DNA of 64,000 nucleotides from NCBI GenBank assembly GCA_028877215.1, contig JAPPFJ010000024.1, positions 20,835-84,834 of the forward strand. Reading direction: 5' to 3'. Below are positions 1 to 22,638 of this stretch, piece by piece. Made by a program: the position numbers and the translations under genes. The notes under the pieces were generated by a model. That model was not told the DNA's origin, did not search any database, and saw only the letters and a list, made by a program, of their open reading frames with translations. Position 1 is the first letter of the stretch. Each line of letters begins with the position of its first letter. This stretch comes from Gemmatimonadota bacterium (lineage in GTDB: Bacteria; Latescibacterota; UBA2968; GCA-2709665).

Positions 1-263
1 ATGAGGTCACGTACCGGGCGAGGTTTTTGTTTCCGGATGAAGATGAACTTCCCAGCCGGATCAAGAAGATGGGTAAAAGCAGAGCGGGAGTGGAGACGAC
101 GATCACGGCTCGGTACGAGGGGGACCGGGAGGATGACTTCACGTATCTGCAGATTGACCTGAGCCACGTGCCTGCCGGAGTGCACCGCCTATCTGTAACG
201 GTCAAAGACATGCATACGGGTCAAATCGCAGCGCGTGAAACGTTGTTCCGTGTGATTGAGTGA
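1..263 (+). CDS. 3' end of a GWxTD/TPR-family paralog (G0, G3-subtype), truncated by the window edge
   Basis: The reading frame is open from position 3 to the TGA at 261-263. The translation EVTYRARFLFPDEDELPSRIKKM...TLFRVIE aligns along its whole length with the C-terminus of the 6056..8503 product (DEVTYRARFVFPDEDKLANRIKKM...ALFRVID). The DNA is also clearly alignable. Confidence 0.8.
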   Translation, partial: EVTYRARFLFPDEDELPSRIKKMGKSRAGVETTITARYEGDREDDFTYLQIDLSHVPAGVHRLSVTVKDMHTGQIAARETLFRVIE

Positions 264-362
264 AGGCCGTTCTTCGCAAAGCCATCCGCGGAATCCCGTC
301 TCAGGATCGAAACGAACAAGATGGGTGCTGGCAAACGCGCATAATAGCAGAAAACAGACACA

Positions 363-394
363 AAGACGCTTGCTCCTGAGGGTGTAAGCGTCTT
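363..394 (+). terminator. Possible hairpin downstream of G0
   Basis: AAGACGCTT, a 14-nt loop, then AAGCGTCTT gives a 9-bp perfect stem. The following T tract is weak (GGCTTTAT). Confidence 0.25.
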
Positions 395-743: not shown

Positions 744-3260
744 ATGAACTGGTTCAAGCACTATTTGATTGCATCGATCACGATTGTCGTTTGTTTGGGC
801 GAAAGTCCGGCCGCAGGATCGACTGCAAAGGACATCTCACGGGTCGATAGCACGTATAAATCCGGGCTGGCCTATCTCGAATCCGGGAAATATGAGAATG
901 CCGAGAGGTGTTTTCAGGCGGCACTGGAGATCAACTCGAAACATGCGCCTTCTTACGTCGGGCTGGGTCATGTCTATTTGAAGAGAGATGAACTAGGGCT
1001 CGCTGAAGAGTCTTTCCGAGAGGCTCTCCGAAAGCGGAAGAACTACGCTCCAGCCCTGAACGGACTGGGTCTCGTGTTTCGCAATACAGAGAAAATGTTG
1101 GATTGGGCAATCAAGTATTTCCGAAGTGCGTACCAGGCGGACCGAGGGTATGTGGAAGCGTACTATAACCTGGCCCAAACGTATGGTGAGATTGGCAATA
1201 CAAAGGCACTGGATACGTATAAGAAACTGGTTAAGATGGTCCCGGATCACTCGGATGCATGGTTCCAGATTGGGAGAATTTACAAGAATAGAGGCTTGGG
1301 TCGGGCTCAAAATTCCCACGAAGCCGAGACAGCATTTCGGAGACAACTGCGAATTGATCGACACCATTCAGGGGCAAAATTGCAACTTGGTCAGTTGTTG
1401 AAAGAAGCAGGACGCACGGATGAAGCACTCGCGATGTTCAAGGCAGTCGTGGATACGCCCAATGCCTATCAGCGGCGCGCGTTCCTGGAACTGGCGGAGA
1501 TGTATCAGCGTGCGCGGAACCACGATCTGTTTGATGCGATACTGGATGCTTACCTGGAGGATCTGCCACCCGGCGAGCAGGCATTATACTACGATCCAAG
1601 CCTGGTGGTTATCAGGGATGAACTGTCCCGCTTCCAGGCGACGCCAGATGAAGAGCGTAAGGCGCAGTCTGAAAATTTCTGGGCGACTCGGGATCCTGCG
1701 CCGGTGACGGCGGCCAACGAACGGTGGATAGAGCACTGCCGCCGGGTGGCGTATGCACGGGAGCATTTTAGCGAGTACGAATTCCCCTGGGACGTACGTG
1801 GGGAGGTGTATGTACGTTATGGAAGGCCCGATCACATCAGTGCGTCGGAGAACATCCGATTTGAGACGGACCCAAAGGTTCTTGCAGTTAAGGACCGGCT
1901 GATGAGCCAGGCTGGCGAAGCCTTGTCTCACCTCCTTCTGAGCCGGCGCATGGTCAGCTTCTATAGGTCGATGAGTGGATCAGTAGAGAAGGGTATGGAC
2001 GACCGGAAGACACTATCTACAATTCTTGGTTACCCGGTATACCCCGTTCGAGGCGCCTGGGAATACTGGATTTACTCGAAAGTCGATGGTGGCGTGGAAG
2101 TGACTTTTGTACAGGAACACGGGCCAGGCCCGGGCCCCTACAAGTACGCAGAGGTGCCGCATGCGGGCTCCGCTATCTGGGTGGACGAGATCACAGGGCG
2201 AAACCCCGGCACCACCTTGTTGACTGACGGGCTAATGGATGAAATCCCTGATGCTTGGATCGATACTTCGATAGATACTTCGATGTCGACTGACGAGCCA
2301 ACGGATGAAATCCTTCATCCTTCGAACGATACTTCGATCAAGTCAAATTTGATATGGCAGCGAATGAACCCCGGTCTGGTGATGCATCGCGTGACGCGCA
2401 AGACGCCTGAGATTTACGAGCAGGATTTCGCGACTGCCCCCCTCGATTTCTTCTATGACTCGGCTCGATTCAAGGCAGATGACCGTTCGGTGAAACTGGA
2501 GGTGTACTATGGTATTCCCACGCCTGACCTTGACTACAAAGAAGGACCCGACGGAAGGCTGACGGCATACGTGAAGCGGGGGCTGGCGCTGTACGACGAG
2601 GCTGACAAGCTGGTATATCGGTCGAGCGAGGATATGGTGCTGTACGCGTCGGGACCGATCGACACCACCCAGATCGCATTTGTGCCGGAGATGGACCGTC
2701 TCTCTGTGGCACCCGGTACCTATCGGCTATCCGTGCAGATTCTGGACGCGTCTTCGGATAAGTCCCAGGTTTACAACCGAGAAGTGGTTCTACATCCATA
2801 TGGCGATGACTCGCTGAGGGTGAGTGATATCGAGATGGCGTCTTTGATCCGTCCAAGCCATGGCAGCAAATTCACAAAAGGTGAGATCGAGGTGGTACCC
2901 AATCCGAGCCTGTTCTATTTTTCCGGCCAGCCGGTGTTTGTCTATTACGAGGTGTACAATCTGAAGAGAGATGAATTCGGTGCGACAAAGTACCGGGTAT
3001 CGTACGAACTGCATTCGCTGAATAAGGGCAATCTGGCGGTCAGGGTGTTGAAGGCGCTTGGCAGGTTGGTCGGCGTCGACAGAAAGGCTGAGGTCGTGAC
3101 CGTGGAGTACGCGCACGAGGGAGACAAAGCCGATGAGTACGGATACCTGGAACTGGATATGTCGAAAACCGATCCGGGGCATCAGTTGTTGATCGTCAAG
3201 GTTTTTGATGAGCTTGCAGGTAGCCAGACATCCTCGGCGGTATCGTTTGCTATTCGATAA
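744..3260 (+). CDS. Secreted TPR-repeat protein with GWxTD-type domain (G1, subfamily A)
   Basis: The track ORF is 639..3260. The preferred start is the ATG at 744, preceded by GAAGGGGAGGG, giving the signal-like N-terminus MNWFKHYLIASITIVVCLGESPAAG. TPR-like repeats are present (HAPSYVGLGHVYLKR, APALNGLGLVF, AYYNLAQTY). The GWxTD-family signature context is FWATRDPAPVTAANERWIEHCRRVAYAREHF...PWDVRGEVYVRYGRPDH. The C-terminal YYEVYNL beta-rich region is shared by all paralogs. Confidence 0.85.
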   Translation: MNWFKHYLIASITIVVCLGESPAAGSTAKDISRVDSTYKSGLAYLESGKYENAERCFQAALEINSKHAPSYVGLGHVYLKRDELGLAEESFREALRKRKNYAPALNGLGLVFRNTEKMLDWAIKYFRSAYQADRGYVEAYYNLAQTYGEIGNTKALDTYKKLVKMVPDHSDAWFQIGRIYKNRGLGRAQNSHEAETAFRRQLRIDRHHSGAKLQLGQLLKEAGRTDEALAMFKAVVDTPNAYQRRAFLELAEMYQRARNHDLFDAILDAYLEDLPPGEQALYYDPSLVVIRDELSRFQATPDEERKAQSENFWATRDPAPVTAANERWIEHCRRVAYAREHFSEYEFPWDVRGEVYVRYGRPDHISASENIRFETDPKVLAVKDRLMSQAGEALSHLLLSRRMVSFYRSMSGSVEKGMDDRKTLSTILGYPVYPVRGAWEYWIYSKVDGGVEVTFVQEHGPGPGPYKYAEVPHAGSAIWVDEITGRNPGTTLLTDGLMDEIPDAWIDTSIDTSMSTDEPTDEILHPSNDTSIKSNLIWQRMNPGLVMHRVTRKTPEIYEQDFATAPLDFFYDSARFKADDRSVKLEVYYGIPTPDLDYKEGPDGRLTAYVKRGLALYDEADKLVYRSSEDMVLYASGPIDTTQIAFVPEMDRLSVAPGTYRLSVQILDASSDKSQVYNREVVLHPYGDDSLRVSDIEMASLIRPSHGSKFTKGEIEVVPNPSLFYFSGQPVFVYYEVYNLKRDEFGATKYRVSYELHSLNKGNLAVRVLKALGRLVGVDRKAEVVTVEYAHEGDKADEYGYLELDMSKTDPGHQLLIVKVFDELAGSQTSSAVSFAIR

Positions 3261-3370
3261 AACGACTCCAAAGACATGTTGCTTACGTCGATAGGCATCG
3301 CGCAATGCAATGACCGATCGATCGAGGACTGAATTTGCCCTTACGTCTATCAGGCATATAGGGGGACGTT

Positions 3371-5881
3371 ATGCGTTATCCATTCCTGAAGGTGATCTTG
3401 ATGATGCAAGCCCTGGCATGGCAGCCGATTTTTCTGATCGCTGCCGTACTGACAATACCCATCGCTTCGACGGACGCTCAATCCCGGGAGAACGCCAGCA
3501 AAATTGACTCCCTTTATCAAATGGGAATGCAACTGTCAGAACAAGATTCGTTGGCCGCGGCGGTCGGGCAATTTCAGGCTGTAATAAAGTTGAACAAGAA
3601 ACATGCCCCCGCGTTCGTGGGATTGGGCCATGTCTATCTGAAACGAGGTAACCTGAAGGATGCTGAGAAAGCCTTTCGAAAGGCTCTACGCAAACAGAAG
3701 GACTACCCGCCTGCCCTGAACGGATTGGGTCTGGTATTTCGGAATACCGACAAAATGCTGGATTGGGCGATCAAGTATTTCCGAAGTGCGTACCAGGCCG
3801 AACGCGGGTACGCGGAGGCGTACTATAATCTCGCGCAGACGTACCGCCAGATTGGTGACACGAAGGAACTGGATACGTACAAGAAACTAGTTAAGGTAGT
3901 CCCGGATCATTCCGATGCATGGTTTCAGATAGGGAGGATTTACAAGGATGGCCTCGCGGGTCGGTATCGAAATGCCGAGAAAGCGGAGGCCGCATATCGG
4001 CGGCAACTCAATGTAAATCCACAGCACTTCGGAGCACGGACGTATCTCGGCCAGGTGTTGAAAGAAGAAGGACGCACGGATGAAGCGTTGGCAATGCTGA
4101 AAGCCGTCGTGGATACGCCGAATGCCCATCAGCGGCGCGCCTTTCTGGAACTGGCAGAGGTCTATCAGCGTATCCGCAACTACGACCACTCAGAAGCACT
4201 TCTGGATGCTTTCCTGGAAGGTCTGGCACCGGACGAACAGGCCATATACTATGATTTGGGCCTGGTGGCGATCGGGCACGAGCTCATTCGCTCCCAGGAG
4301 ACACGGAAGGGCGAACGTAAGGCGCTATCCGAAGCCTTCTGGGCGTGTAGAGACCCGGCGCCGGTAACGGCAGCCAACGAACGGTGGATAGAGCACTGCC
4401 GCCGGGTGGCGTATGCACGCGAGAATTTCGGGAGGTTCGAATTCCCGTGGGATGCGCGCGGGGAGGTTTATGTGCGGTTTGGGGAGCCGGATCACATCAG
4501 TCGGTCGGACAATATACTGTTTGAGACGGAACCGAGGGTCGTTGCCGTGAAAGAGAGGCTGATGAACCAGGCGCGCAATGCGCTCGGGTCTCTGTTGCAG
4601 GCTCGCGAGGGTTGGGCAACTGCAGAGGCGATTAGCAAAGCCATCGGACCGATGAGTTCGACCCTCAGGGAGATTGGGGAAACCGGCTACTATCGCGACG
4701 CGACCAATACGAGTGGTGTTACGAAGTCTGAGGGTGCGAGTATAACGACTTCGGTCGACGAGGCTTACGCGCGTACCGGGGCATTGATGGGTGAAGGTAC
4801 GATCCGGGGTTGGCCAATCTATCCGGTTCTCGATAAGGTTTGGGAATACTGGATATATACCAATGTAGAACGAGGGATTGAGGTCACTTTCACCCAGCCA
4901 TATTTCCCTGGGCCCTACAAGTATGCAGACCCACCGATGTCTATCGGAGAACCTAAACCTATTATCTCGCAACTGTGGCAACGAACGAATCCTCGAGTTG
5001 TCGTGAACTGGGCAGCTGCGAAAACGCCATCGGTCTATCGACCGGATTTCGCCACGGCTCCACTGGATTTCTTCTATGATTCGGCCAGATTCAAAGGACC
5101 GGACGGCGCCGTGACGTTGGAGGTATATTTCGGCATTCCCGTACACGAACTTTCGTTTAGACCAGGCGAGCAGGGCAAGCCGACGGCATTCCTGAAGCGA
5201 GGATTTGCGCTGTTCGATGAAGACCGCCGTCGCGTTCACCGATCCTCTAGAGACATGGAGCTCTATTCCGAGAGGCCTCTTGATACCACGCAGTTAGCCT
5301 TTGTGCCGGCGATGGAACGGGTCTCAGTGACGCCGGGAAGATATCGAATGGACCTACAGATCCTGGATTTGACGTCGGAAAAATCTCAGGTCTACAACCA
5401 ACAGACACTTATGAATTCGTTTGAAGGTGAGACCGTAATGTTAAGCGATATCCAGTTGGCCGCATCGATCAGGCCGCATGGCGGCGGCGAGTATGTCAAG
5501 CGCGATCTCCAGGTGATCCCTAACCCGAGCCGCACGTTTCTGTTGAGTCAGTCGGTATTTCTATATTATGAGATTTACAATTTGAAGAAAGATGAACTCG
5601 GAGCAACCAGGTATAGCGTTTCCTATGAAATACGCGCCGATGGAAAGAGGCCTGTGAGGATAGACGTGATTGCGGCTCTAGGTAAACTTCTGGGCAGGCG
5701 CGAAGAGGGAGAGGCGATCAATATCGAGTATGACCACGTTGGTATCCAGGCAGATGACTATGGATATCTCGAATTGGATATGTCGAACACCGAGCCGGGG
5801 AACCAGACATTGGTCGTTCAAGTGACTGATAAGAATAGCGGCCAAAAGACAACGTCTACGGCGACGTTCACGATCCGATGA
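3371..5881 (+). CDS. Secreted TPR-repeat protein with GWxTD-type domain (G2, subfamily A)
   Basis: 836-aa ORF, colinear with G1. It shares FWACRDPAPVTAANERWIEHCRRVAYARENF...PWDARGEVYVRFGEPDH and has a hydrophobic N-terminus. Confidence 0.85.
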   Translation: MRYPFLKVILMMQALAWQPIFLIAAVLTIPIASTDAQSRENASKIDSLYQMGMQLSEQDSLAAAVGQFQAVIKLNKKHAPAFVGLGHVYLKRGNLKDAEKAFRKALRKQKDYPPALNGLGLVFRNTDKMLDWAIKYFRSAYQAERGYAEAYYNLAQTYRQIGDTKELDTYKKLVKVVPDHSDAWFQIGRIYKDGLAGRYRNAEKAEAAYRRQLNVNPQHFGARTYLGQVLKEEGRTDEALAMLKAVVDTPNAHQRRAFLELAEVYQRIRNYDHSEALLDAFLEGLAPDEQAIYYDLGLVAIGHELIRSQETRKGERKALSEAFWACRDPAPVTAANERWIEHCRRVAYARENFGRFEFPWDARGEVYVRFGEPDHISRSDNILFETEPRVVAVKERLMNQARNALGSLLQAREGWATAEAISKAIGPMSSTLREIGETGYYRDATNTSGVTKSEGASITTSVDEAYARTGALMGEGTIRGWPIYPVLDKVWEYWIYTNVERGIEVTFTQPYFPGPYKYADPPMSIGEPKPIISQLWQRTNPRVVVNWAAAKTPSVYRPDFATAPLDFFYDSARFKGPDGAVTLEVYFGIPVHELSFRPGEQGKPTAFLKRGFALFDEDRRRVHRSSRDMELYSERPLDTTQLAFVPAMERVSVTPGRYRMDLQILDLTSEKSQVYNQQTLMNSFEGETVMLSDIQLAASIRPHGGGEYVKRDLQVIPNPSRTFLLSQSVFLYYEIYNLKKDELGATRYSVSYEIRADGKRPVRIDVIAALGKLLGRREEGEAINIEYDHVGIQADDYGYLELDMSNTEPGNQTLVVQVTDKNSGQKTTSTATFTIR

Positions 5882-6055
5882 AAATACGCATCGAACATAT
5901 CGTCGTAACAGAGAGATTTACACCCCAGTTGGCTAATCACGGTACCGTATTACGAGACTGCGGGATCTGATCACAATCGACCGGACAATTGCTTCGGGCA
6001 TCGTGCGCGCCTGTTGCGACGGCCGACTGTATCAAAATTAACCGCTGCGGAGTTC

Positions 6056-8503
6056 ATGGGGCTTGTAGTGCCGAACCTGCGAAATATCGATAGGCTCAAA
6101 CGCCGCGCAAGGTTGACTCCAATGGCATTCGTGACATTGTGTCTCGGATTCTGTCTCGCTGCGCCGATTGCCGCGAGCGAGAAGCAGCTTGCCGAACGGC
6201 TCTACGAGACGGCGATGGCGCAAGCGGGAAATGTGACCGCCAAAGAGAGTATCAAAGCCTTCAAGCGGGTATTGAGGGCGGACCTGGACTTCGCACGAGC
6301 CCATTACGAAATCGCGAAGCTGTATATGTCCCTCGACACGTCGATGGATCGCTATAGCGCAATGAAGGCGGTCAATACGGCCATTCGTCTGAACAAAGAC
6401 AATGTCGCCTACCGTGTATTAAAGGCGGATATCCTGTGGACGCAGGGATTTTGGCACAATGCCGTAGCCGAGTACAAGGATGTCCTGAAACTGGATCCTG
6501 AAAACGCGAACGCAGCCTATATGATCGGCCATCATGGCGTCAAGAACTTTCTGAAAAATTACGATATGTCCATGATGAATATGGTATCCGGATTCAGTCG
6601 GAGAGAACGTACACGCACCAGACATTCGTGGAGAGATTTCGGCATTGAGGAACTGGATGAAGCCGTCACGTATCTGAAGACCTGCATTGAAGCAGATCCC
6701 ATGTTCAAGGATGCATATTTCCAGCTCGGGCTTGCCTGCCTGGAGACAAACCGGCCGGTCGAACTGATCCGGGTGGCAAACCTGCTTTTGGAGCGCGTCC
6801 CTGATGACAAGGATGCGTTGCTCTTCTGCGGGCTTGGATACCAGAGTTTGGGCGAAGAAGCGCAGGCGAATGAGTTCTATTCCCGTGCGCTGCAGAGGAT
6901 GGCGCCGGATGAGCGGGCGATGATGGAATCCGTAGACAGTATTGTTCCGGATGATGGCCGCGCAAAGTTCGAAGGCGTACCCGCCGGGTCCGAGGCATGC
7001 CGAGACGAGATTCAACCCTGGGTGGATAACGTCGAGCGGGTCCGGTTCTGGCAGCGACAGGATCCACTGTTCTTGACTGAATTCAATGAACGCCGCACGG
7101 AACACTACGGCCGGGTAGCTTACGCGAATCTGCGGTTCAGCCGGCCCTCGAAGGGTATTGCCGGTTGGCGGACGGATATGGGAAGAGTCTACATCAAACT
7201 GGGAAGATACCTCCACCGGGGGGTGCAGCGGCCGGAAACAGGTTCGGTCATTGCAATAGACAGGACCAGCACGTTCGGTAGATACCTGCCGGGACGGAGA
7301 ATGCCCTGGAAGCTCAGGATGCAGAAAGAGACGTGGTTCTACGAGGGATTTCGGGTCGATTTTCAGATATCCGATGGCTTCCACGGCTTCTCTCCGTCCC
7401 GGTTGCCGGATCGTACGCGGTATGTCGATCCCTATGGTCCGCAGAAATACAGCGTGCCCCACCTGGTCGCGAGCTTCAGGGACGGGGACAGCCTTCGCGT
7501 GGAACTGGCGTATGCGCTGCCGAAATTCAATCTGGCCGTATCGGATTCGGACAGGAACATAGGTCTGGAGAATGGTGTCTTTCTGTTCGACGAGCAATGG
7601 GACGAGGTTTATCGGAAGCGTTCGGATCTCAAACTGCAGTGGCCCGAGATATCCCCGAGCGGATATCCCGCTGCGGACAGCCTGCGAAAAAGCCATCTGG
7701 TATTTCAGATCGCATTCGGGCTTTCGCCCGGCGCCTACAATCTTGTGGGAGAGGTGCGGGACCGGAAACGGGGGTCAATCGGGACCTTTCGGCAGCTCCG
7801 CAAGTTCGAACCGTTGGACGCCTCGCTGTCTATGAGCGATCTGTTGCTGGCGGCCCGGATTGAAACGCGAACGCCGTTTCCGGAGGGGCGATCGGACCTG
7901 GACATTGTGGCAAATCCACTGCGGACCTACCACCGGTCCGAACCCGCGTTCATCTACCTGGAGGTGTATAACCTGGAGCGGGTCGAATTCGGGCGCACGG
8001 AGTACCAAATTGCTTATCGAATAGGACGGCCGGAGAGGAAGAAGATCGATCCGTACCTGTTCCTTGCGCAACGGCTGCCTGAGGGCGGGAGGCAATTGGA
8101 GGTCTCGCGTGATATCAGGACTGTGGAGACAGGCGTGCGCCGGCCGGAGCGAGCGGCCGAGGAGGAAGATGAGCCTCAAGAGGATTTGCCGGTCACGACG
8201 CCAGTCGTGGTCCCGGACTATTTCGACGGGCAAAAGAGGGATGAGGTCACGTACCGGGCGAGGTTTGTGTTTCCGGATGAGGATAAACTTGCCAACCGGA
8301 TCAAGAAGATGGACAGAAGCAAGGAGGGGGTGGAGACGACGATCACGGCACGCTATGAGGGCAACCGGGAGGACGACTTCACGTATCTGCAGATTGACCT
8401 GACCCACGTGCCTGCCGGCGTTCACCGCCTGTCAGTTAGCCTCAGGGACATGCATAGTGATCAGGTAGACTCACGCGACGCGTTGTTTCGTGTGATTGAT
8501 TGA
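6056..8503 (+). CDS. Secreted TPR-repeat GWxTD domain protein (G3, subfamily B, canonical GWxTD motif)
   Basis: The track ORF is 6014..8503. The ATG at 6056 keeps the positively charged n-region and the hydrophobic stretch (RLKRRARLTPMAFVTLCLGFCLAAPIAA). It contains FWQRQDPLFLTEFNERRTEHYGRVAYANLRF...GIAGWRTDMGRVYIKLG, which matches the GWxTD domain signature as I recall it (TIGR04514). Confidence 0.85.
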   Translation: MGLVVPNLRNIDRLKRRARLTPMAFVTLCLGFCLAAPIAASEKQLAERLYETAMAQAGNVTAKESIKAFKRVLRADLDFARAHYEIAKLYMSLDTSMDRYSAMKAVNTAIRLNKDNVAYRVLKADILWTQGFWHNAVAEYKDVLKLDPENANAAYMIGHHGVKNFLKNYDMSMMNMVSGFSRRERTRTRHSWRDFGIEELDEAVTYLKTCIEADPMFKDAYFQLGLACLETNRPVELIRVANLLLERVPDDKDALLFCGLGYQSLGEEAQANEFYSRALQRMAPDERAMMESVDSIVPDDGRAKFEGVPAGSEACRDEIQPWVDNVERVRFWQRQDPLFLTEFNERRTEHYGRVAYANLRFSRPSKGIAGWRTDMGRVYIKLGRYLHRGVQRPETGSVIAIDRTSTFGRYLPGRRMPWKLRMQKETWFYEGFRVDFQISDGFHGFSPSRLPDRTRYVDPYGPQKYSVPHLVASFRDGDSLRVELAYALPKFNLAVSDSDRNIGLENGVFLFDEQWDEVYRKRSDLKLQWPEISPSGYPAADSLRKSHLVFQIAFGLSPGAYNLVGEVRDRKRGSIGTFRQLRKFEPLDASLSMSDLLLAARIETRTPFPEGRSDLDIVANPLRTYHRSEPAFIYLEVYNLERVEFGRTEYQIAYRIGRPERKKIDPYLFLAQRLPEGGRQLEVSRDIRTVETGVRRPERAAEEEDEPQEDLPVTTPVVVPDYFDGQKRDEVTYRARFVFPDEDKLANRIKKMDRSKEGVETTITARYEGNREDDFTYLQIDLTHVPAGVHRLSVSLRDMHSDQVDSRDALFRVID

Positions 8504-8567
8504 AGATCAAGGCATCCAGGAAAGCCGGCAATAAGCTCTCTGCAAAATTCCAGGGTAGGTGACCTCG

Positions 8568-11337: not shown

Positions 11338-11362
11338 AGGGCACCCACAAGGGACGCCCCTA
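11338..11362. repeat. REP-like hairpin element, family GGGCGCCCACAAGGGACGCCCCTAC (copy 1, variant GGGCACCC)
   Basis: The same 25-26 nt sequence recurs at 24025, 24104 (inverted) and 27518. It self-folds as a GGGCGCCC / GGG(A)CGCCC stem with an ACAA loop. Confidence 0.8.
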
Positions 11363-11391
11363 CGAACCGGAGGTTGGACTATTAAGCTTGC

Positions 11392-11518: not shown

Positions 11519-11621
11519 TTAATCAGTTAATGATATTCGAAAGAGACCGTGAGTCACCAGACTGCAGATTGTTATTGAATCCGCGATCATATTTTCAAAT
11601 GTGGAAGTGAAAGGGCGAGTA

Positions 11622-12701
11622 ATGACTGCAAGACTTCCTGCTGTGATCGCGATTATCTCAGGTCTCGCAGCATGCGGATCGAGTGCGCCAACACCGTCGG
11701 AACCACCGGCCGACCTGAAGGGGTTTGAATATGCCGGTAATCTGATTCAGAAGCGGTTCTGGCATACGGCGACTTTAATGAACGATGGCCGCGTTCTCGT
11801 TTCGGGCGGAGCGGCGACGGATCGCCCGGGTCATTCGTCTGCAGCGCTGTATCACGACAGCACGGAGCTGTTCGATCCTGAGACCGGTACCTCGTCGTCG
11901 ACGCGCAACATGTCGAGGGGCAGAGTTGGCGACAAGGGTATATTGCTGGCGGACGGTCGGGTGGTGATTCTGGGAGCGCACCTCGCTCCGGTGGAGATAT
12001 ACGATCCCCAATCAGATAGATTCTCCGCACACAACGCAACATTGGGAGATATCGGTACCGCGACGTTGCTACCGAATGGGAAGATACTTGCATATTGCCG
12101 ATCTGACATCGCTCTTTTCGACCCGGATACAGGGAATTTTGTGCGTCTTCCAGGGTCGTTTGGCAGTCGCGGAGGCCATACGGCGACCTTACTTCAGAAT
12201 GGGCGTATCCTCATTGTTGGCGGCGGCTACCGTGGAGGTTTGGGAAAAGTCGCGGAAATCTACGAACCGACGTCCAACACATTTACGAGCGTTGGGGAAT
12301 TATACAATGAACGTCGTGGACACAAAGCCGTCCTTCTCAATGACGGCAGGGTATTGGTTATTGGCGGCACTAAAGGCGATTTCACCTCTCCTGAGCCTGT
12401 AATGGAGGCCGAACTATACGACCCGGTTACCGGTACGTTCTCGCTGGTGGGCTCTCCTGGTATCATGCCGATATGGGCCGCCGCCGCCCTACACACAGGT
12501 AAAGTGTTTCTTATCTGCGGCGAAGATGGAAACGTCGTTATCTACGATCCCGCCTCCGGGTCGTTCATTCTCACGGGAGACAGCATTGGACCCAATCGAA
12601 AGTTCTATTCGACAACCGTCCTTAACGACGGTCGCGTTCTGGTCGCCGGAGGAATGAAAGACGGAGAAGCTACGGATCACGTTCTGGTTTACAAACCCTG
12701 A
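11622..12701 (+). CDS. Kelch-repeat beta-propeller lipoprotein (K1)
   Basis: The ATG at 11622 gives MTARLPAVIAIISGLAACGSS, with a canonical lipobox L-A-A-C. There are seven repeats of the H(T/K)A(T/V)LL.DGRVL(I/V).GG type, typical of Kelch/galactose-oxidase-like blades. Confidence 0.85.
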   Translation: MTARLPAVIAIISGLAACGSSAPTPSEPPADLKGFEYAGNLIQKRFWHTATLMNDGRVLVSGGAATDRPGHSSAALYHDSTELFDPETGTSSSTRNMSRGRVGDKGILLADGRVVILGAHLAPVEIYDPQSDRFSAHNATLGDIGTATLLPNGKILAYCRSDIALFDPDTGNFVRLPGSFGSRGGHTATLLQNGRILIVGGGYRGGLGKVAEIYEPTSNTFTSVGELYNERRGHKAVLLNDGRVLVIGGTKGDFTSPEPVMEAELYDPVTGTFSLVGSPGIMPIWAAAALHTGKVFLICGEDGNVVIYDPASGSFILTGDSIGPNRKFYSTTVLNDGRVLVAGGMKDGEATDHVLVYKP

Positions 12702-12713: not shown

Positions 12714-12912
12714 GTTAGCCTCAATGCGAAAAAAACAGCAACGCGGCAACGCGATAAAACCCTCCGAAACGGGGCAATATCGACGTATAGAATGACGTTT
12801 TTTCCCTTCACGTCCAGTGACCTGGTGTATCCTGGTAATCCGCCGTTTAATCGCCTTTATTTACAAGCACATATTCGAATTAACGTCCCCAAAGACTTAC
12901 GAATCAAGGTTA
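12714..12912 (-). mobile_element. 199-bp MITE-like repeat, copy A (inverted relative to copy B)
   Basis: By hand alignment the reverse complement matches 18652..18850 at 196 of 199 positions. The three mismatches all lie near the outer end. It begins 13 nt after the K1 stop. Confidence 0.85.
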
Positions 12913-13147
12913 GTTATACACTCCCTAACGTGGTCGAAGTTCACTAAAGTCAGCTTCCATTGTCGCGATAGAAAATTCTCTGATGTAATTCGGAGTCGGA
13001 GTAGGAACACAACAAGACAGCGTATGATTACCTGGTTTCTGTCATTGGGCTAATCCGGCGGGCAGCACAGGCAGTGACTGCGCTTCGGTAAGCCAATTGC
13101 GATACCCCTGAGAATCACACGGCGGACGATTGCCATCCCCAAAGCGC

Positions 13148-16200: not shown

Positions 16201-16559
16201 TTCCAATGCCAACTCGGACCTACCGGGTGGGCCAGAATGTATTCGTCTACTACGAAATCTATAACCTGACAAGAGACGAATTCGGGCAGACGAACTACCA
16301 GATATCCTACACCGTCACGAAGAAGGGCGGCTTCAACCCCCTGGGTATCATTAAAAGCCTTATCAGGTGGAAGAAGGGCAAACGTGAAGAACTGGAAGTG
16401 ACGTACGAGATGCTGGGTGAGGATACCATGGAGGTCGAATACGTGGAACTCAAGCTGGAAAACCGCCCCGCGGGCAAGTACTTCCTGAACGTGACCGTCA
16501 TCGATATGAAAAGTGGTGAAATGGCCCAGAAAAAGGCCAGCTTTATTCTCGCGAAGTAG
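13254..16559 (+). CDS. Large secreted protein: N-terminal extension, TPR repeats and GWxTD-type domain (G5, subfamily C)
   Basis: 1101-aa ORF with signal-like MKSRGGSTRVKRRVLVLISALAISALCPL. TPR-like repeats are present. It contains FWADQDPDLTTAANERLLEHYRRVSFAMQNF...QPWDQRGEVYIRFGEPDH and the C-terminal VFVYYEIYNL region, as in the other paralogs. Confidence 0.85.
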   Translation: MKSRGGSTRVKRRVLVLISALAISALCPLENLDAQVRQTAVSASSGGDTAWAIGLETGSSAITEIWVETPGNQPRHLGTFPGPPGRLEWVAGGKRLRYRETPLRVPLHTLTMLPERSVPLVPPGVWEISIRDGSIARSKSAVGAEAGTQSVAEAVNAPQPSRAAKAVLWGVAAVFNASALAYTTVHRWEFRSAVKRYRQASRSWASLYLRFKKHGLYEEPVLSYAGALAATAKKAGAKRGARWVCQDHLTVIGDALHAYEQAHENQRPSDLAALRNWMETHTLTPADSIVMKTLFRSAMDSDKKRRFSYTHGYRPEAEDGEAVVTSFFHDGYLVEAVRSGAGYRTVDRRVGKAQVDSLLNLGTDLTPIDPPRAISTLEILAGVAQDYALGHSRLGFAYLEAEKLERAIKSFERAIECEHTLAEAYFGLGLTFRKWPRGNYDAIRYFQKALQYDRGHVESRFNIADIRYKLDEHDVRREVKKVLAIDPRYAPAYLLMGKWVEEFEKDYERAAFYYAKYMGLRPGDPEGRKRLGSIYLRTKDYGRILEVLEDYAVQNPDDNQVLPILAQACMKLGAYDRAAAFFRDYLERADAAEKGHYHDIRLVAPKETLAAFEKTPLEERWDFVKKFWADQDPDLTTAANERLLEHYRRVSFAMQNFSDGRQPWDQRGEVYIRFGEPDHRSTYKELNFQQSMAVQRVKERLSRTLYGAARPPRRGIGLRGASSTFVGPVYPVRSLGGRGPGGSYRPVTATYDGSMVPWETWTYVDVGSGIEITFTDEFSNGNYNYAPEPLDARIPARRLAMFTRYSPRNIYRMAAAAQPNYFVRPKNTLPMEFYFNSADFRSETDFRTALEVYVGIPRHQGHYIVDDDRTEIMVDRTVALRNPTTGAVYRSEDKVHFAAKGDVTAERTAFVPDLARMDVPPGRYRMEVKIKDNLSVQHGRYRQDVEIESYEQDSLQVSDLELAWRISSRKDDDKFNKGALWVIPMPTRTYRVGQNVFVYYEIYNLTRDEFGQTNYQISYTVTKKGGFNPLGIIKSLIRWKKGKREELEVTYEMLGEDTMEVEYVELKLENRPAGKYFLNVTVIDMKSGEMAQKKASFILAK

Positions 16560-16702: not shown

Positions 16703-18667
16703 GTGGAGGAGAAAATCTACGCTTTCGGCATGGACGGCTTTATCGTCCCAATGATGAAGCGTTTCGCCGCGGAAGGCGCGCTGCCCCACTTCGAGCGCAT
16801 GCAGCGCGAGGGCGCCGTCAATCAGACCCTTCCTTCTTTCCCGGTGTGGACCCCGACCAACTGGGCCACACTTTCGACGGGGGCGCACACGGGCACGCAC
16901 GGGGTTACGCGCTGGCGGGTGGAGGTTGCGCCGGGACAGCGGATCGACAGTTTCGACGGGCGGGCCAACAACGCCGAGCGAATATGGAATGCGCTGGAAC
17001 GGGCGGGCATGAAGAGTGTGGCCGTACACTACCCTGCCGCCCATCCGTCCGGGGTGAGGTCGGGCTATGTCGTGGACGGTTTCGGCCACCCCGGCCATCG
17101 CAGCACGGAGTTTGAGGTGGCTTCCTGCTAGGCCTATACCACCGACGCCTTGCCAGAGGGCGCCATCGAGATGGACCACGATGGCACAGCGGTGCGGCAG
17201 GCCCAACGCAGCGTCGAGCCGATTCCGCCGCTGAGACCGGCGCGGGAATGGCGCAACCTGCCCGAGAGTGGAGCGCCGCCGCTGGAGAGCCGCATTGAGG
17301 TGGCCGCCCGGCCGGGCGGGGACGTCTCAGCGTTCAACCTGCTCGCGGTGGACAGCGCGGGACGGGGCTACGACCGGGTGCTGGTTTGCCGGGACCGGAA
17401 TGGGTCGAATTGCATCGCTGAAGCCGGCGTGGAAGAATGGAGCGAATGGGCGGTGGAGGATTTCGCCATCGACGGGAGCAAACGTTCAGCGTCACTGCGC
17501 TTCAAGCTGATGGAACTGGCCGCTGACGGCAGCCGGCTCAAGCTCTATCGCACCCAGGCGACTTTTACCGGCGGCTTCACTGTCCCCGACGAGTTGGCCG
17601 GAGAACTTCTGGACCGCTTTGGGCCGTATCAGGAACACGCGTCGATGTTGCCCTATACCTCGGGCATGGCCGATTTCGATACCGCCCTCGAGGAATGCGA
17701 GTACCAGGGGATGTGGTTTGCCGAGGTCGCGCGCTACATGCTTCGGGAGCGGGATTGTTCCTTTTTTATCTGCCACTGGCACCTGTACGATTACCTCAAC
17801 CACATCCACCTGGGGGACGTCGACCCCGTGTGCCCCGGGTACGTCGCCGAGCGCGCCGAAGAGTACGTGGACTACTTCCGGCGGGCTTATCAGGTGGGCG
17901 ACCGTATCCTGGGACGGTTGTGGGAGGACGCGAACGCGCATACGTACGTGGGCGTGGTATCCGACCATGGGTGCTCGCCCGACGTCCGGGTGGCCAATAT
18001 CCGGCAGTTCTTGTACGAGCAGGACTTTCTGGCGCTCAAGCGCGGCGGCGAAGAGGACCTGGCTCGAGATCAGGTGCGCGAGGAGGACGTCGACTGGGAG
18101 CGCACGCGGGCCTATCTCAAGGATGACAAGGGGTTCGACATTTTCATCAACGCCGTTCCGGGACCTGAGTTCGACCGGATCGAGGCCGAGTTGCTGCTGG
18201 CGCTGCGCACGTGGGTCGACGAGGAAGTGGGACGCAATCCGGTGGCTATCGCCCTGCCACGACGGGACGCGTACATTCTCGGGCAATGGGGAGACCAGTG
18301 CGGCGACGTGGTCTTCGCCTGGGACCACGGGTACGTCAGCGGGTACTACGGCCAGTGGCGGGGTATTGCTGGTGGGGGCTGCGTAGGCGCGCCCAATGTG
18401 TTCGGGGCGCACCACGGGGGTTTTCTACCGACCCTGAGCGAGGTCTCGTCCAGCTTCGGTTCGTGGTTGATGGCAGGGCCGGGGGTGAAGCGCGGATACG
18501 AGCGGCCGGTGGACAAGCTGGGGTATATCCACGCCGCCGACGTCGTGCCGACCTTCTGCCGGATCCTGGGGGCCGAACCGCCGCGCCAGGCGCAGGGTGC
18601 GGTGGCGGGGGACTTGTTCGAAGGGCATGAAATGGTGCGCGAGCGAATGTCTAACCTTGATTCGTAA
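16703..18667 (+). pseudogene. Alkaline phosphatase / type I phosphodiesterase-nucleotide pyrophosphatase family gene interrupted by an in-frame TAG at 17129-17131
   Basis: Track ORFs 16703..17131 and 17150..18667 are in the same frame. The reading is ...EFEVASC-TAG-AYTTDALPEGAIEMDHDG. The N-terminal part has family-like motifs (IYAFGMDGF, LPSFPVWTPTNWATLSTGAHTGTHGV). The last five codons and the stop lie inside MITE copy B. Confidence 0.7.
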
Positions 18668-18850
18668 GTCTTTGGGGACGTTAATTCGAATATGTGCTTG
18701 TAAATAAAGGCGATTAAACGGCGGATTACCAGGATACACCAGGTCACTGGACGTGAAGGGAAAAAACGTCATTCTATACGTCGATATTGCCCCGTTTCGG
18801 AGGGTTTTATCGCGTCGCCGCGTTGCAGTTTTTTTCGGATTGAGGCTAAC
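18652..18850 (+). mobile_element. 199-bp MITE-like repeat, copy B
   Basis: Inverted, near-identical partner of 12714..12912. It overlaps the 3' end of the phosphatase-family gene and ends about 50 nt before the G6 start. Confidence 0.85.
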
Positions 18851-18900
18851 CCGGGCGCTTCTTCGTGAATCGAGTCGAAAACGACATGGGAGGTGTTGTG

Positions 18901-21900
18901 ATGCATTGGGTAAAGACCCTGCTCATAAGCGCATCTTGCATCGTGACGATGCAATGTCCAGTCGAATCCGCGCGAGGGGACTTCCACTTCGTGAGATCGG
19001 CGGACGGGGAGCACCTGGCCTTTGTCAGCAGACGTGGTGAGGGGGCGGTTTCGCTGTCCGAAATATGGCACGTCTCCCCGAAATACGAAAGCCCCAGGAA
19101 ACTGACGGCCTTTCCCGGCGAACCCGGAACCCTCCATTTTGCGCCTGGCGGGGACGAGCTGATCTACCTCGAGCGAAGCCTGCGGCGGGAAGCCTGGGGC
19201 TCGTATTTTTACGGGGGGCAGCCGCTCCCGATTACGCGAAACCGAGTCTGGCGGTTGCGCCTGGACGGCGCCGGAGAGGAGGCGTGGCCCCTTCCCGGAG
19301 ACCTGCAACCCCTCGAGATCGCGCTCTCTCCCGACGGACGGTCGCTGGCGATTGCCGGGTATCGGGGAAGTGAATTGGCCATGGTGTACCGCGGTCTATG
19401 GATCGTGAATGACCGCGGCGATATCAGGCATCTGTTTGCCGGCGATGTTGCGGGGCCGGTAGCGTGGTCAGCGGACGGGAACTCTGTCAGGTGCCGAATC
19501 AATGACGGAGCAGAGTCGATTCGCGTTCATGTAGACACGGGAGAGGCCGTCCCGATAGATATCAAAAAAGATATACCCATGATCGGGAAACGGAGTCATG
19601 AGCCTTTTCTGCTTACCCGAACGTCCCCTGGCATGCGCGAGGCCGACGGTGCGGATGCGGCCCTGGGCCTGATCGGTACCGGCCTGGATCTGTATATACG
19701 CGGACGGAACGCGCTGCACCGGGGAAACGAAGCAAGAGCGGAGAAGATGCTCGAGCAGTCCAGGCGCGCATTCAGGAAACTCTACGATGGGGCCGCGAAG
19801 TACGGACTGTCGAGGAAGAGTTGCACGAGATACATCGAAGTATGCGAAGACTGGATCGAAGCTGACACCGGGACGACAGACAGACACAACTGCCGGGAGC
19901 GTCTGACGGGGATGCTGCGGTTGATCGAGGGCTTCAAGCGCACCAGGGACGGCAGTGAACCCGCGGATCTCGGAGAACTACACCAGTGGGCAACAGCCAG
20001 GATTGTTGCAGAGACGCCCTCCGGGAACGAACGGGATGAATACAAAACCATCCTCGGCGTGCTGTTCTCCTGCCCGGTAAACAGGGACTACGCATTCCTC
20101 AGCGACTATCTCTATAGGCACGAAGGGTTGCCCGCCGCGCCGGACCTGGCATGTTTCTGGCACCGAGGCGAGCGGATCGACGGCATCGCCGGTCGCGCCG
20201 GCGGTCACACGAAAACCTCCATCCCGCGCGCGGCACAGGTGGACAGCCTGGCCGCCAGTGGACGCCGCGCCATGGACGGGGATGATCTGGATCGGGCTCG
20301 ACTGATCTTTCGCAGCGTGGCCCGTCAACGCCCCAGGGATCCCGATGCATACGTCAATCTGGGTCACATACTCTTGAAATTGAGACGATTCGAGGAATCG
20401 AAGGACGCGTTTCATCGTGCTCTGACCCTGGGGAGCAAGGCGCTGGGCCACCATGGCCTGGGAATGCTCTACGCGACGTGGCCGATGCAGCGGCACTTCG
20501 CGATTCACCATTTCACCGAAGCGCTGGTCAGGGACCGGAACTTTGTGGATGCGCGGTATCAGATGGCCAGAGTACGCTATGCGATGAAGCAGCGCGACGC
20601 CGAACTGGAAGCAAAGAGAGTCCTGAAAATGGACCCGGGCCACGCGGGCGCCTATCTGATGATCGCGGACTACTATCTGAACCTGTCCTGGGAATTCGAG
20701 AAGGCCGTCGTGTGGTATACGAAGTACCTCGCGCTTCGCCCGGAAGACGCGGACGCGCAGCGGCGGATGGGGGTTGCGTACCTGAAAGTCAGAGATTATT
20801 CCAGGATTATGGACCATCTGCTGGACTTCGTCAAAAGGCACCCCGAAGCCATCGAGTTGATGCCCATTATCGCCATTTCCGCCATCGAGCAGGACAAAGC
20901 GGATATGGCAATGGCGTTCTTCGAAGACTACATCTCCAAACTTGACCCGGAAGTGAAGGGATTGTACGAAGATATCTCGCTTGTCGCCTCCGGTGAGGAT
21001 CTCAGGGCATCTGATGAGACCCCGGGCCTGGATCGCGAGACGTATCTCAGACGATTCTGGAACGGGAAGGATCCGGACCTGTCCACACCGGTGAATGAAC
21101 GCCTGCTGGAACACTACCGAAGGGTCTGGTACGCACTGACCGAGTTTTCGGAAGGCAAACAACCGTGGGACGCGAGAGGCGACGTCTATGTCCGATTCGG
21201 GGAACCCGATCACCGGTCCCGGTCGGACGACCCCAACTTCAAACAGAGCCTGAAAGTGCAGCGGGTCAAGGAGCGGCTCGCTTACAACATCTACAAGGGC
21301 GACGTCCGCTCGCACACGTTTGTCGGACCCGTCTATCCCGTACGCAGCCTCAAACAGCTCGACGGCGCCTGGTACGAATTGAGAGAGGTTAAAATTGAGA
21401 ACTCGGAACCGTCGGCGTGTGAAATTGCCGGCGCGGCGGACCATGGAACACAGGCAGGCGATACGGAACCGAATCAGGACAGAGAAAGGGACCATTTCTT
21501 CGTGAATGACGATTCCGTGAAGTTAGGCATTTTGCCACTGGACGAAAGCCTGGGATTCGGCGACTATCACCCTGTTACCACCGGCGAAGACCGGAGCACC
21601 GTACCCTGGGAAACGTGGATCTATACCGGTGCGGGCGGCGGAATCGAAATCACCTTTACCGACGAGATTGGTTCCGGGATCTACGACTACGCTCCGGTAC
21701 CGCCAAACCAGGGGGATATCTCATTAGGTGAAACCGCGACGTTGAGCAGGCACGCGCCCCATTCCGTCTACCGGCGAGCAGCGCGTGTCACGCCCGATTT
21801 CTACACGCCACGACATGAAACGCCGCCGCTCGACTTCCACTATTCGCTTGCCGACTTCAGGGGAGAAGAGGGCCGCAGCCTCCTGGAAATCTACTACGGC

Positions 21901-22638
21901 GTCCCCATTCTTCCGGCGCATTACGTGCCGGAAGAGGATTTCACACGGCAGGTTCTGACGCACCACGCGGCGCTCATTTCGTCGTCTCAAGACACGGTCT
22001 ACCGTCGAACCGACGAGATGACCTACGAAGCCGCCGGAAACCAGGCAGGAGAAGGCCTGATGGTACCTGACGTGCTGAAACTGGACCTGCCGCCCGGCGC
22101 CTACCGACTGGAGGTAAAGTCGCAGGACCGGTTACGGGGACGAACGGGCATCTATCAGCAGCAGGTTGGCGTGGATCGCTATGGTGAGGAACGATTGCAG
22201 ATCAGCGATCTGGAGATGGCCTGGCAGGTTGGCGCGGCAAATCCGACCGGTAAGTTTGCCAAGGGAGATCTGAACGTCATTCCGATGCCTTCGCGGACGT
22301 ACAAAAAGGGTCAGAGCGTGTTCGTCTACTACGAAATCTACAACCTGGACAAAGACGCGTTCGGTCAGACGAACTTCAACGTTTCCCATACCATCACGTC
22401 CAGAGATACTCCCGGGCGGGCGGGAAACATCTCGCGCCTGTTCCGGTGGGGAACCGGCAGGCGCGAGGAGCTTGCCGTCACGTATGAACAGCTGGGCGCG
22501 TCGGCACAGGTCGAGGAATACGTGGAACTCGCGCTGGACGTCCAGGATCCTGGACGATATTCATTGAAGGTATCGATCAGCGACAGGAACAGCGGTGAGA
22601 GCGTGGAGAAAGACGTGGCTTTTGTGATTACGCCTTAG
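18901..22638 (+). CDS. Large secreted protein: beta-propeller-like N-terminal extension, TPR repeats and GWxTD-type domain (G6, subfamily C)
   Basis: The track ORF starts with GTG at 18865. The ATG at 18901 follows GGGAGG and gives MHWVKTLLISASCIVTMQC. The N-terminal region has PD40/TolB-like strings (SPDGRSLAIAG, WSADGNSV). It contains FWNGKDPDLSTPVNERLLEHYRRVWYALTEF...QPWDARGDVYVRFGEPDH and VFVYYEIYNL. Confidence 0.85.
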   Translation: MHWVKTLLISASCIVTMQCPVESARGDFHFVRSADGEHLAFVSRRGEGAVSLSEIWHVSPKYESPRKLTAFPGEPGTLHFAPGGDELIYLERSLRREAWGSYFYGGQPLPITRNRVWRLRLDGAGEEAWPLPGDLQPLEIALSPDGRSLAIAGYRGSELAMVYRGLWIVNDRGDIRHLFAGDVAGPVAWSADGNSVRCRINDGAESIRVHVDTGEAVPIDIKKDIPMIGKRSHEPFLLTRTSPGMREADGADAALGLIGTGLDLYIRGRNALHRGNEARAEKMLEQSRRAFRKLYDGAAKYGLSRKSCTRYIEVCEDWIEADTGTTDRHNCRERLTGMLRLIEGFKRTRDGSEPADLGELHQWATARIVAETPSGNERDEYKTILGVLFSCPVNRDYAFLSDYLYRHEGLPAAPDLACFWHRGERIDGIAGRAGGHTKTSIPRAAQVDSLAASGRRAMDGDDLDRARLIFRSVARQRPRDPDAYVNLGHILLKLRRFEESKDAFHRALTLGSKALGHHGLGMLYATWPMQRHFAIHHFTEALVRDRNFVDARYQMARVRYAMKQRDAELEAKRVLKMDPGHAGAYLMIADYYLNLSWEFEKAVVWYTKYLALRPEDADAQRRMGVAYLKVRDYSRIMDHLLDFVKRHPEAIELMPIIAISAIEQDKADMAMAFFEDYISKLDPEVKGLYEDISLVASGEDLRASDETPGLDRETYLRRFWNGKDPDLSTPVNERLLEHYRRVWYALTEFSEGKQPWDARGDVYVRFGEPDHRSRSDDPNFKQSLKVQRVKERLAYNIYKGDVRSHTFVGPVYPVRSLKQLDGAWYELREVKIENSEPSACEIAGAADHGTQAGDTEPNQDRERDHFFVNDDSVKLGILPLDESLGFGDYHPVTTGEDRSTVPWETWIYTGAGGGIEITFTDEIGSGIYDYAPVPPNQGDISLGETATLSRHAPHSVYRRAARVTPDFYTPRHETPPLDFHYSLADFRGEEGRSLLEIYYGVPILPAHYVPEEDFTRQVLTHHAALISSSQDTVYRRTDEMTYEAAGNQAGEGLMVPDVLKLDLPPGAYRLEVKSQDRLRGRTGIYQQQVGVDRYGEERLQISDLEMAWQVGAANPTGKFAKGDLNVIPMPSRTYKKGQSVFVYYEIYNLDKDAFGQTNFNVSHTITSRDTPGRAGNISRLFRWGTGRREELAVTYEQLGASAQVEEYVELALDVQDPGRYSLKVSISDRNSGESVEKDVAFVITP

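Follow-up and report, generated by a model that had tools for sequence, protein, structure and literature searches.

There is a protein family named after the GWxTD domain (TIGR04514 in NCBIfam, PF20094 in Pfam), for which literature searches on the domain and its family identifiers found no publication. Here, an array of genes assigned to this family is described, which lies in a 64,000-nucleotide stretch of bacterial DNA (contig JAPPFJ010000024.1, positions 20,835 to 84,834; Latescibacterota, deposited as a Gemmatimonadota bacterium). This whole stretch is referred to as the window, and the genes of the array as G0 to G6 (Table 1). The window is a slice of a 112-kb scaffold in the European Nucleotide Archive (ENA), ROBB21-1_SAMN13943213_METAG-scaffold_372 (L059); the two are identical across the 13,260 nucleotides compared, and encode G1 identically. 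The array genes share with the described GWxTD family the match to TIGR04514, the lineages and the annotated name of the homologs. They differ in that a solenoid of tetratricopeptide repeats (TPRs) precedes the domain and two β-sandwiches follow it, and in that two of their three subfamilies (A and C) have the motif PWDxRG and an insertion which splits the domain.

Several other described proteins resemble one part of this architecture. The envelope-assembly lipoproteins and scaffolds PilW/PilF, PrsT, BamD, LapB and CpoB/YbgF are exported TPR solenoids, as the array proteins are predicted to be, and there are partial matches to their hidden Markov models (HMMs), with E-values to 1e-22, over the TPR region. 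However, PrsT, PilW and their kin have neither the GWxTD domain nor the C-terminal β-sandwiches; the cutoffs of the equivalog models for PrsT, PilW, MamA, LapB, Tgl and GltE are not reached (best scores 79.8 against 312 for PrsT and 77.8 against 154 for PilW), and the matches to these models cover TPR stretches only. OGT and SPINDLY have the same domain order, i.e., TPRs followed by a conserved globular domain, but the match to them (330-440 aligned columns) is to the TPRs only, and the array proteins have no glycosyltransferase domain and are predicted to be exported. RbmA, the biofilm matrix scaffold of Vibrio cholerae, comprises tandem FnIII domains, and the last 270 residues of G4 are likewise modelled as two consecutive β-sandwiches. 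Transglutaminases are matched in their pair of C-terminal β-barrels, whereas no transglutaminase core is present in the paralogs. With regard to cohesin–dockerin scaffoldins, proteins like the formylglycine-generating enzyme (FGE) in the related locus L002 have a signal peptide and dockerin-looking EF-hands, and GWxTD proteins end in β-sandwiches; no paralog has a Pfam match to cohesin, and the Kelch proteins of the window are without a dockerin-like module. Finally, TPRs are among the eukaryote-like repeat classes that have been mapped across the genomes of sponge symbionts, with mention of Latescibacteria [Robbins et al. 2021, PMC8163846], whereas the defining part of the proteins described here is the GWxTD domain rather than a eukaryote-like repeat. 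The host of the array is probably a sponge symbiont, a sponge origin being read only from the scaffold name, which matches that study; the same arrays are also present in Latescibacterota genomes of unestablished habitat. Literature searches linking Latescibacteria with TPR/Kelch or dockerin returned nothing relevant.

A first-pass annotation, made from the sequence without database searches, had called these genes exported TPR plus GWxTD paralogs, and HMM searches bear out the family call. All six complete proteins match TIGR04514 (59.1, 50.2, 53.5, 50.5, 60.5 and 48.9 bits for G1 to G6, respectively; curated cutoff 28 bits), and all six exceed the gathering thresholds of multiple Pfam TPR families. 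The gathering threshold of PF20094 (26.9 bits) is not reached by any paralog (G1 23.9, G4 20.5 and G5 23.2 bits; no match at E ≤ 1e-3 for G2, G3 and G6). A precomputed match to PF20094 is present in several close homologs, and close homologs are already annotated as “GWxTD domain-containing protein” by NCBI and JGI. Judged by the NCBIfam criterion, the genes are members of the GWxTD family, and they represent a clade-specific expansion of a known domain family. As had been noted, the part of the array within the window consists of seven large open reading frames (ORFs) on the plus strand, six of which are complete genes and one of which (G0) is partial; the starts that had been named at 6056, 8568 and 18901 are in-frame ATGs inside the ORFs of G3, G4 and G6. 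The shared motifs that had been quoted were also found, i.e., FW..DP....NER..EH, VY(V/I)(R/K).G.P and (V/A)F.Y(Y/L)E(V/I)YNL.

The proposed division into three subfamilies is recovered both by pairwise BLASTP and by a neighbour-joining tree that includes relatives: A comprises G1, G2 and G4, B comprises G0 and G3, and C comprises G5 and G6. G1, G2 and G4 are 44-52% identical over their full length, G5 and G6 are 34% identical, and the G0 fragment is 76% identical to G3 across 86 amino acids; A and C are ~30% identical to each other, and B is 20-27% identical to the others, in patches. The E-values between paralogs, from 0 to 1e-18, rule out chance likeness. PWDxRG is found in subfamilies A and C, and the literal GWxTD motif only in B. 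It had been claimed that G0 and G3 are the only members to keep the canonical GWRTD; this is so for G3, but the motif of G0 lies outside the window and, in the full-length gene on the source scaffold (L059 7091-9520; 809 amino acids, 61% identical to G3), reads GWQTD. In an alignment of 127 relatives of G4, the residues of PWDxRG predominate (W353 87%, D354 96%, R356 99%, G357 99%). The long N-terminal extensions described for subfamily C are present, whereas the PD40-like strings said to be within them come down to one marginal Pfam match, in G6 only (22.2 against 20.9 bits); the G6 extension has no relative in the PDB by sequence.

The first-pass annotation had also pointed to loops of differing length within the GWxTD region, and these differences between paralogs are real. 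The GWxTD domain of A and C is interrupted by an insertion that is specific to each paralog and can reach ~100 residues, and in loop 2 there is an insertion of ~50 amino acids that is specific to G1. Within the same loop of G1 lies a direct duplication of 55 nucleotides with a spacing of 66 nucleotides (2218-2338, plus strand; 84% identity), which illustrates how these loops grow. Diversifying selection had been suggested, but ratios of non-synonymous to synonymous substitution rates (dN/dS) do not agree with it. In comparison with a near-identical contig (L054), Nei–Gojobori values for ortholog pairs lie between 0.07 and 0.38 (G1 0.38, G4 0.15, G5 0.07), and in comparison of G4 with four diverged orthologs they are 0.06-0.47 across every domain. 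Orthologs of G4 are 77-98% identical, and their loop 1 is gap-free and 76-81% identical, with dN/dS of 0.17-0.23 (96% identical in a near-identical fifth ortholog). As orthologs (73-99% identical) are closer to each other than paralogs are (25-52%), the paralogs predate the species splits; and as the loops are gap-free with low dN/dS among G4 orthologs, they are fixed, paralog-specific features rather than hypervariable ones. This loop pattern would fit subfunctionalisation and not ongoing diversifying selection. Each paralog lineage is kept by purifying selection.

It is the array on which diversification acts, by duplication, gene conversion and cassette replacement, as observed in metagenome assemblies, where mixing of strains within a contig is possible. 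Between the window and L054, the proteins encoded by G1, G4 and G5 are 99.4%, 97.7% and 99.0% identical, respectively. In contrast, identity is just 63% (dS 1.25) between G2 and the gene that occupies its slot in L054, and 52-92% over the first half of G3. The DNA identity, measured per 200 nucleotides, drops from 99-100% to 39-89% within a segment of ~3.9 kb (~3600-7500), which comprises the greater part of G2 together with the first half of G3, and is 100% again at ~7557. In the tree, G2 of the window groups with L006_9425 and L001_9869; G2 of the window and G2 of L054 belong to different sub-lineages of A, both of which are present in the genome OZ244744, which implies the replacement of a cassette rather than rapid point divergence. 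The gene immediately upstream of G1 is B-type in the window and C-type in L054, and the order of genes in the array varies among genomes. Mosaics due to gene conversion are visible in the array: the TPR part of G2 in L054 is 86-98% identical to G1 and its C-terminal half 8-44% identical, and the first 50 residues of U1, a gene upstream of the window, are identical to those of G1.

Upstream of the window, the source scaffold has a gene for a MacB/FtsX-type permease and three further genes of the family, giving a count of ten members in ~32 kb (the six complete genes and one partial gene of the window, and three more upstream). U1 (L059 1856-4296) is G1-like (74% identical) and is broken into two overlapping ORFs of 490 and 323 amino acids; the break is within the repeat-containing loop 2, i.e., the loop in which G1 has its 55-nucleotide duplication. 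U2 encodes 811 amino acids and is 70% identical to G1. The order B-A-A-B-A in the window had been read as a higher-order duplication. On the source scaffold, this order is part of A-A-B-A-A-B-A-(Kelch)-C-(PDE)-C, PDE being a phosphodiesterase-like gene; a duplication may lie behind it, but corresponding members have unequal identities (74%, 59%, 61%). A clean duplication of an A-A-B block, twice, is not supported, given these unequal identities and the presence of gene conversion.

Seven copies in 23 kb had been thought to be a very unusual dosage, but within this clade of Latescibacterota it is normal for genomes to carry multi-copy arrays and to have several copies of type B. Arrays were found in at least six other Latescibacterota genomes (some of the records of the relatives are labelled Gemmatimonadota). 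At least seven to eight copies were counted in OZ244744, across two overlapping loci, and at least six in a single 22-kb locus of OZ241917, which has others elsewhere; in OZ242180 the order is B-A-B-Kelch-C-PDE-C-Kelch; and several genomes have at least four B-type proteins. In 16 further loci of Latescibacterota, which come from about a dozen genomes (three of them with arrays as well), there is a single A-like copy. This ortholog is 46-48% identical, and its neighbourhood is conserved and unrelated to that of the array; no functional theme could be drawn from the neighbours, which are an aldo-keto reductase, a 761-amino-acid repeat lipoprotein (itself unrelated to the GWxTD family) and an inositol-phosphate synthase. 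The wider family is large: when the non-TPR part of G4 was compared with 1.84 billion representative proteins, 4461 clusters, counted at 50% identity, were matched at E ≤ 1e-3 and 1584 at E ≤ 1e-10. Bins of KSB1, Chlorobiota, Bacteroidota, Melioribacter and Gemmatimonadota also have related loci.

The N-termini of all six complete proteins are basic and then hydrophobic (maximum Kyte–Doolittle hydropathy over 15 residues 1.75-2.49); each paralog thus probably has a Sec signal peptide, and the export that had been proposed is plausible from these N-termini. An AlphaFold2 model of G4, built with 66 homologs, has a mean predicted local distance difference test score (pLDDT) of 83. It comprises a TPR solenoid at ~30-290 (paired helices over 26-287), predicted to be of about seven to eight repeats, a helical and hairpin GWxTD region at 295-552, and two β-sandwiches at 569-836. 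The sole long segment of low confidence is loop 1 (410-474), which corresponds to the first of the variable loops that had been pointed out. When residues 290-837 of G4 are modelled alone, with an alignment that is also shallower, the β-sandwiches stay confident and the GWxTD part falls below a pLDDT of 50; in these models, the GWxTD domain reaches good confidence only together with the TPR region. Because of that low confidence, the truncated model allowed Foldseek searches for the β-sandwiches only. The whole G4 chain matches only TPR proteins by Foldseek (consensus TPR, OGT and SPINDLY, with PilF, 2ho1, among the matches), and sequence searches of the PDB, which started from a single protein or from a profile of the non-TPR part, gave TPR matches only or none. 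The β-sandwich pair matches RbmA, C-terminal barrels of transglutaminases and arrestin/VPS26 (E 3.5e-8 to 1e-5), with template-modelling scores (TM-scores) of 0.12-0.35, root-mean-square deviations (rmsd) of 11-21 Å and identities of 6-12%; on the models, this is a generic likeness of tandem Ig/FnIII-like domains and not evidence of homology. Conservation was assessed in the alignment of 127 proteins (121 representatives of 50%-identity clusters and the six paralogs of the window). W317, H335, R338 and G364 are 100% conserved, D321, R331, E334, D354, R356, R362, E493, W495 and Y497 at least 91% conserved, and S693, E735, Y737, L739 and D821, in the β-sandwiches, at least 98% conserved. Residues that are invariant across the family point to one shared functional site, which may be for binding or for catalysis.

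The array is interleaved with genes of other kinds. There are eight genes in the window for Kelch proteins, all eight with lipoboxes. Two of these, Kel1 and Kel2, are within or next to the array; the other six are in tandem further downstream, encode proteins of 364-405 amino acids that are 56-71% mutually identical (lipobox e.g. SFWAC), and are 39-45% identical to Kel1 and Kel2, so that the same island holds a second expansion of paralogs. Kelch genes are also present at the position of Kel1 in L001, L006, L054, L055 and L057, and the pair of a G6-type gene followed by a Kelch gene recurs in four further loci (L002, L003, L006 and L057). In related arrays, the same positions hold genes of the FGE-sulfatase fold, four to six in tandem (L002 12789-17527; L056 12900-20328; L004), each encoding ~344 amino acids with a signal peptide. 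These FGE-fold proteins have an N-terminal, dockerin-like double EF-hand (DANGIVDFGDF...DLDGSGSVDFSDF); the Dockerin_1 match of an FGE-like neighbour from a related contig, at E = 0.025, is below threshold. True formylglycine-generating enzymes carry paired catalytic cysteines. The FGE-like neighbours do not, which rules out a true formylglycine-generating role for them. Kelch or FGE-like genes are present at every array locus examined (L001-L004, L006, L007, L019, L054-L057 and L059), and at none of the 16 single-copy loci or of the loci from other phyla. In two distant members of the family, an FGE-sulfatase domain is fused to the C-terminus, and one of these proteins has a PEGA domain as well; one of the fusion genes is followed by a gene for a Tricorn_N-like propeller. 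The PDE-like gene between G5 and G6 has an in-frame TAG in the window where L054 has CAG; its ortholog is intact in L054 (656 amino acids, with a match to PF01663) and in L055, and is a 175-amino-acid fragment in L057. This gene appears to be decaying in several genomes. A link to sulfatase maturation through it was ruled out, as it has no signal peptide, is a pseudogene here and is a fragment in L057.

Possibly, the array encodes a family of envelope adaptors or scaffolds with a shared GWxTD site and paralog-specific partners; this is the reading that is tentatively preferred, at somewhat under even chances. The site of action of the proteins would be the cell envelope, be it the periplasm, the outer membrane or the surface. 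The invariant GWxTD pocket would serve a step common to all copies, e.g., the binding of a shared ligand or anchor, and the TPR surface together with the paralog-specific loops would choose different partners. The likeliest partners would be the co-amplified small exported proteins, i.e., the Kelch lipoproteins here and the FGE-sulfatase-fold proteins in relatives. A binding or scaffolding role, as had been suggested for these proteins, is consistent with the modelled architecture. Several points weigh against this reading. The localisation and binding of GWxTD proteins are pure inference, and the calling of signal peptides relied on visual inspection and hydrophobicity, not on a trained predictor. 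The linkage to Kelch and FGE genes is seen in one clade only and lacks phylogenetic independence; moreover, the single-copy ortholog and the members in other phyla, which have no Kelch/FGE neighbour, imply that the core function is independent of those partners. The PDE-like neighbour, without a signal peptide and decaying, implies that not every interleaved gene is a partner. Lastly, the dense invariant charged residues would fit the active site of an enzyme as well as a binding pocket.

This last point leads to an alternative which is doubtful but has to be weighed, namely that the GWxTD domain is an enzyme (a hydrolase, a lyase or a protein-modifying enzyme) acting on a polymer or protein of the envelope or the extracellular space, with the TPRs feeding substrates to it and the paralogs differing in substrate. 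Nine polar residues (D321, R331, E334, H335, R338, D354, R356, R362 and E493) are retained between clusters that share less than 50% identity, and the dependence of the modelled GWxTD domain on the TPR region would suit such a role, as would the best whole-chain structural matches, OGT and SPINDLY, though these are via the TPR parts only. The host lineage is rich in polymer-degrading genes, including the heparinase II/III-like gene in the window (Table 1), and sponge Latescibacteria have been found to be enriched in glycoside hydrolases [PMC8163846]. However, the domain has no likeness to catalytic families in Pfam, NCBIfam or PDB sequences and no recognisable catalytic motif, and its fold could not be searched alone, as the truncated model is of low confidence. 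A different view of the same proteins, and an unlikely one, is that they are surface adhesins, matrix proteins or antigens under diversifying, frequency-dependent selection by phage, predator or host, with the loops as variable epitopes. The swap of the G2/G3 segment between strains that are otherwise 99-100% identical, the gene-conversion mosaics, the growth of a loop through tandem duplication and the resemblance of the β-sandwich pair to RbmA are in its favour, and the scaffold name matches a study of sponge metagenomes in which repeat proteins are thought to mediate association with the host [PMC8163846]. Yet dN/dS is well under 1 in all domains, the loops of G4 orthologs are invariant in length and 76-96% identical, and the paralog lineages are of ancient origin and have been conserved from genome to genome; the RbmA match, despite a Foldseek E-value of 7e-8, has TM-scores of only 0.15-0.35 and an rmsd of ~11 Å; and no C-terminal domain of the type IX secretion system and no PEP-CTERM sorting signal was matched in NCBIfam at E ≤ 0.01, an absence which is weak evidence.

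It is quite unlikely that the array encodes a modular dock-and-cargo system of the envelope, in which each paralog would hold a different cargo via its TPR surface, its loop and its cohesin-like β-sandwiches, and in which the exchange of cassettes between strains would re-tool the displayed cargo. The cargo would be the Kelch lipoproteins here and the dockerin-like FGE-fold proteins in relatives, and, once re-tooled, would serve e.g. the recognition of host or polymer in a sponge symbiont. If true, this would be the first function for the GWxTD family and its 4461 clusters. Some features of the locus could also suggest that the array is an artefact of assembly, or a set of decaying pseudogenes without current function: the source is a metagenome scaffold, U1 is broken into two overlapping ORFs, the neighbouring PDE gene has a nonsense codon, and the divergent G2/G3 segment could, in principle, be due to mixing of strains at assembly. 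This is very improbable. The array contains six long, intact ORFs under purifying selection. The paralogs are 60-85% identical in DNA in their best-conserved blocks, which is too low for collapsed repeats or chimeras; the order G1-G2-G3-G4-Kelch-G5-PDE-G6 is the same in two independent assemblies (NCBI JAPOYY010000140.1 and an ENA scaffold of another sample), with DNA identities of 93-99.7%; and comparable arrays are on records that were deposited as single chromosomes of 5-6 Mb (OZ244744, OZ250150, OZ241917 and OZ242180). The concern that the copies might be assembly artefacts, which had been raised at the outset, is thus largely answered. Membership of an anti-phage defence system was ruled out by PADLOC, in which only G1 has a match, at the level of the TPRs, to PrimPol (E 2.6e-4), and the other paralogs have none.

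Table 1. Features of the window, with positions counted from its first nucleotide.
Feature	Position	Strand	Description
G0, subfamily B	3-263 (listed as 1..263)	+	partial by translation: final 86 codons and stop
G1, subfamily A	744-3260 (longest ORF from 639)	+	838 aa; PWDVRG; TIGR04514 match at 1605-1850
G2, subfamily A	3371-5881	+	836 aa; TIGR04514 match at 4289-4510
G3, subfamily B	6014/6056-8503	+	791-829 aa by start choice; GWRTD; short loop 1; TIGR04514 match at 7043-7213
G4, subfamily A	8559/8568-11072	+	834-837 aa; TIGR04514 match at 9423-9677; loop 1 at ~9759-9998
Kel1	11601-12701	+	Kelch β-propeller lipoprotein (Pfam Kelch hits); lipobox LAAC; candidate partner gene
G5, subfamily C	13254-16559	+	1101 aa; N-terminal extension of ~350 aa; TIGR04514 match at 15045-15305
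PDE1	16703-18667	+	alkaline-phosphatase-superfamily phosphodiesterase-like; no signal peptide; TAG at 17129-17131
G6, subfamily C	18865/18901-22638	+	1245-1257 aa; N-terminal extension of ~450 aa; TIGR04514 match at 20965-21231
Kel2	22833-23966	+	Kelch lipoprotein; lipobox LMGC
ORF after Kel2	24164-25732		522 aa; signal-peptide-like N-terminus
Regulator gene	26836-27492		218 aa; HTH_3/XRE-type
Kelch array	27668-35402		six tandem Kelch lipoprotein genes
Heparinase-like gene	51308-54859		1183 aa; DUF4962 and heparinase II/III-like
~200-nt element, three copies	12714-12923; 18641-18850; 38475-38656	+; -; -	complementary ends TTA(A/G)CCT...AGGTTA(A/G)
20-nt motif, four copies	11344-11363; 24030-24049; 24105-24124; 27523-27542	third copy -	CCCACAAGGGACGCCCCTAC

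Some other features in and around the window are noted here. There is a sharply bounded element of ~200 nucleotides, two copies of which are 97% complementary and form an inverted pair, 5.7 kb apart, that flanks G5 and PDE1. The near-identical contigs L054 and L055 lack the right copy, which in the window displaces the final codons of PDE1. The element is also present in other Latescibacterota genomes, where it is 84-92% identical (in L014, L015 and L017, at ~17.3-17.8 kb). Rfam has no match in the window, this element included, and one compensatory pair only supports a fold; from its sequence, the element could be a mobile element similar to a miniature inverted-repeat transposable element, or an RNA of a new kind. 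An intergenic motif of 20 nucleotides, CCCACAAGGGACGCCCCTAC, has four copies where zero are expected by chance, in the gaps that follow G4, Kel2 and the helix-turn-helix (HTH) gene; two of the copies are an inverted pair whose starts are 75 nucleotides apart.

The ORF after Kel2 has no match in Pfam, at NCBIfam level or in PADLOC, and is unrelated to PDE1. The HTH regulator gene lies between the GWxTD/Kelch part and the six-gene Kelch array, and its PADLOC matches (HTH and capH) are through the HTH domain only. In L002 (1-2968), a gene for an OLD-family ATPase/TOPRIM nuclease, followed by one for a UvrD-type helicase, lies some 2 kb upstream of the array; the two look like a defence pair of the Gabija type. 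The remainder of the window (36000-64000) is ordinary chromosomal context, with genes for RecJ, a spermidine synthase-like protein, SDR, DUF350, DUF5069, a DegT aminotransferase and an AAT-family acyltransferase, and the heparinase-like gene listed in Table 1.

Nothing known is overturned by these findings, and the function of the family remains inferred. Nonetheless, the locus and its relatives provide leads: a genomic link, and two fusions, to proteins of the FGE-sulfatase fold or with β-propellers; a short list of invariant polar residues; and paralog-specific loops, conserved among orthologs, that could set the specificity for partners. For the biology of the family, the locus is a clear case of diversification at the level of a multigene array, through cassette replacement and gene conversion, in which every gene stays under purifying selection.

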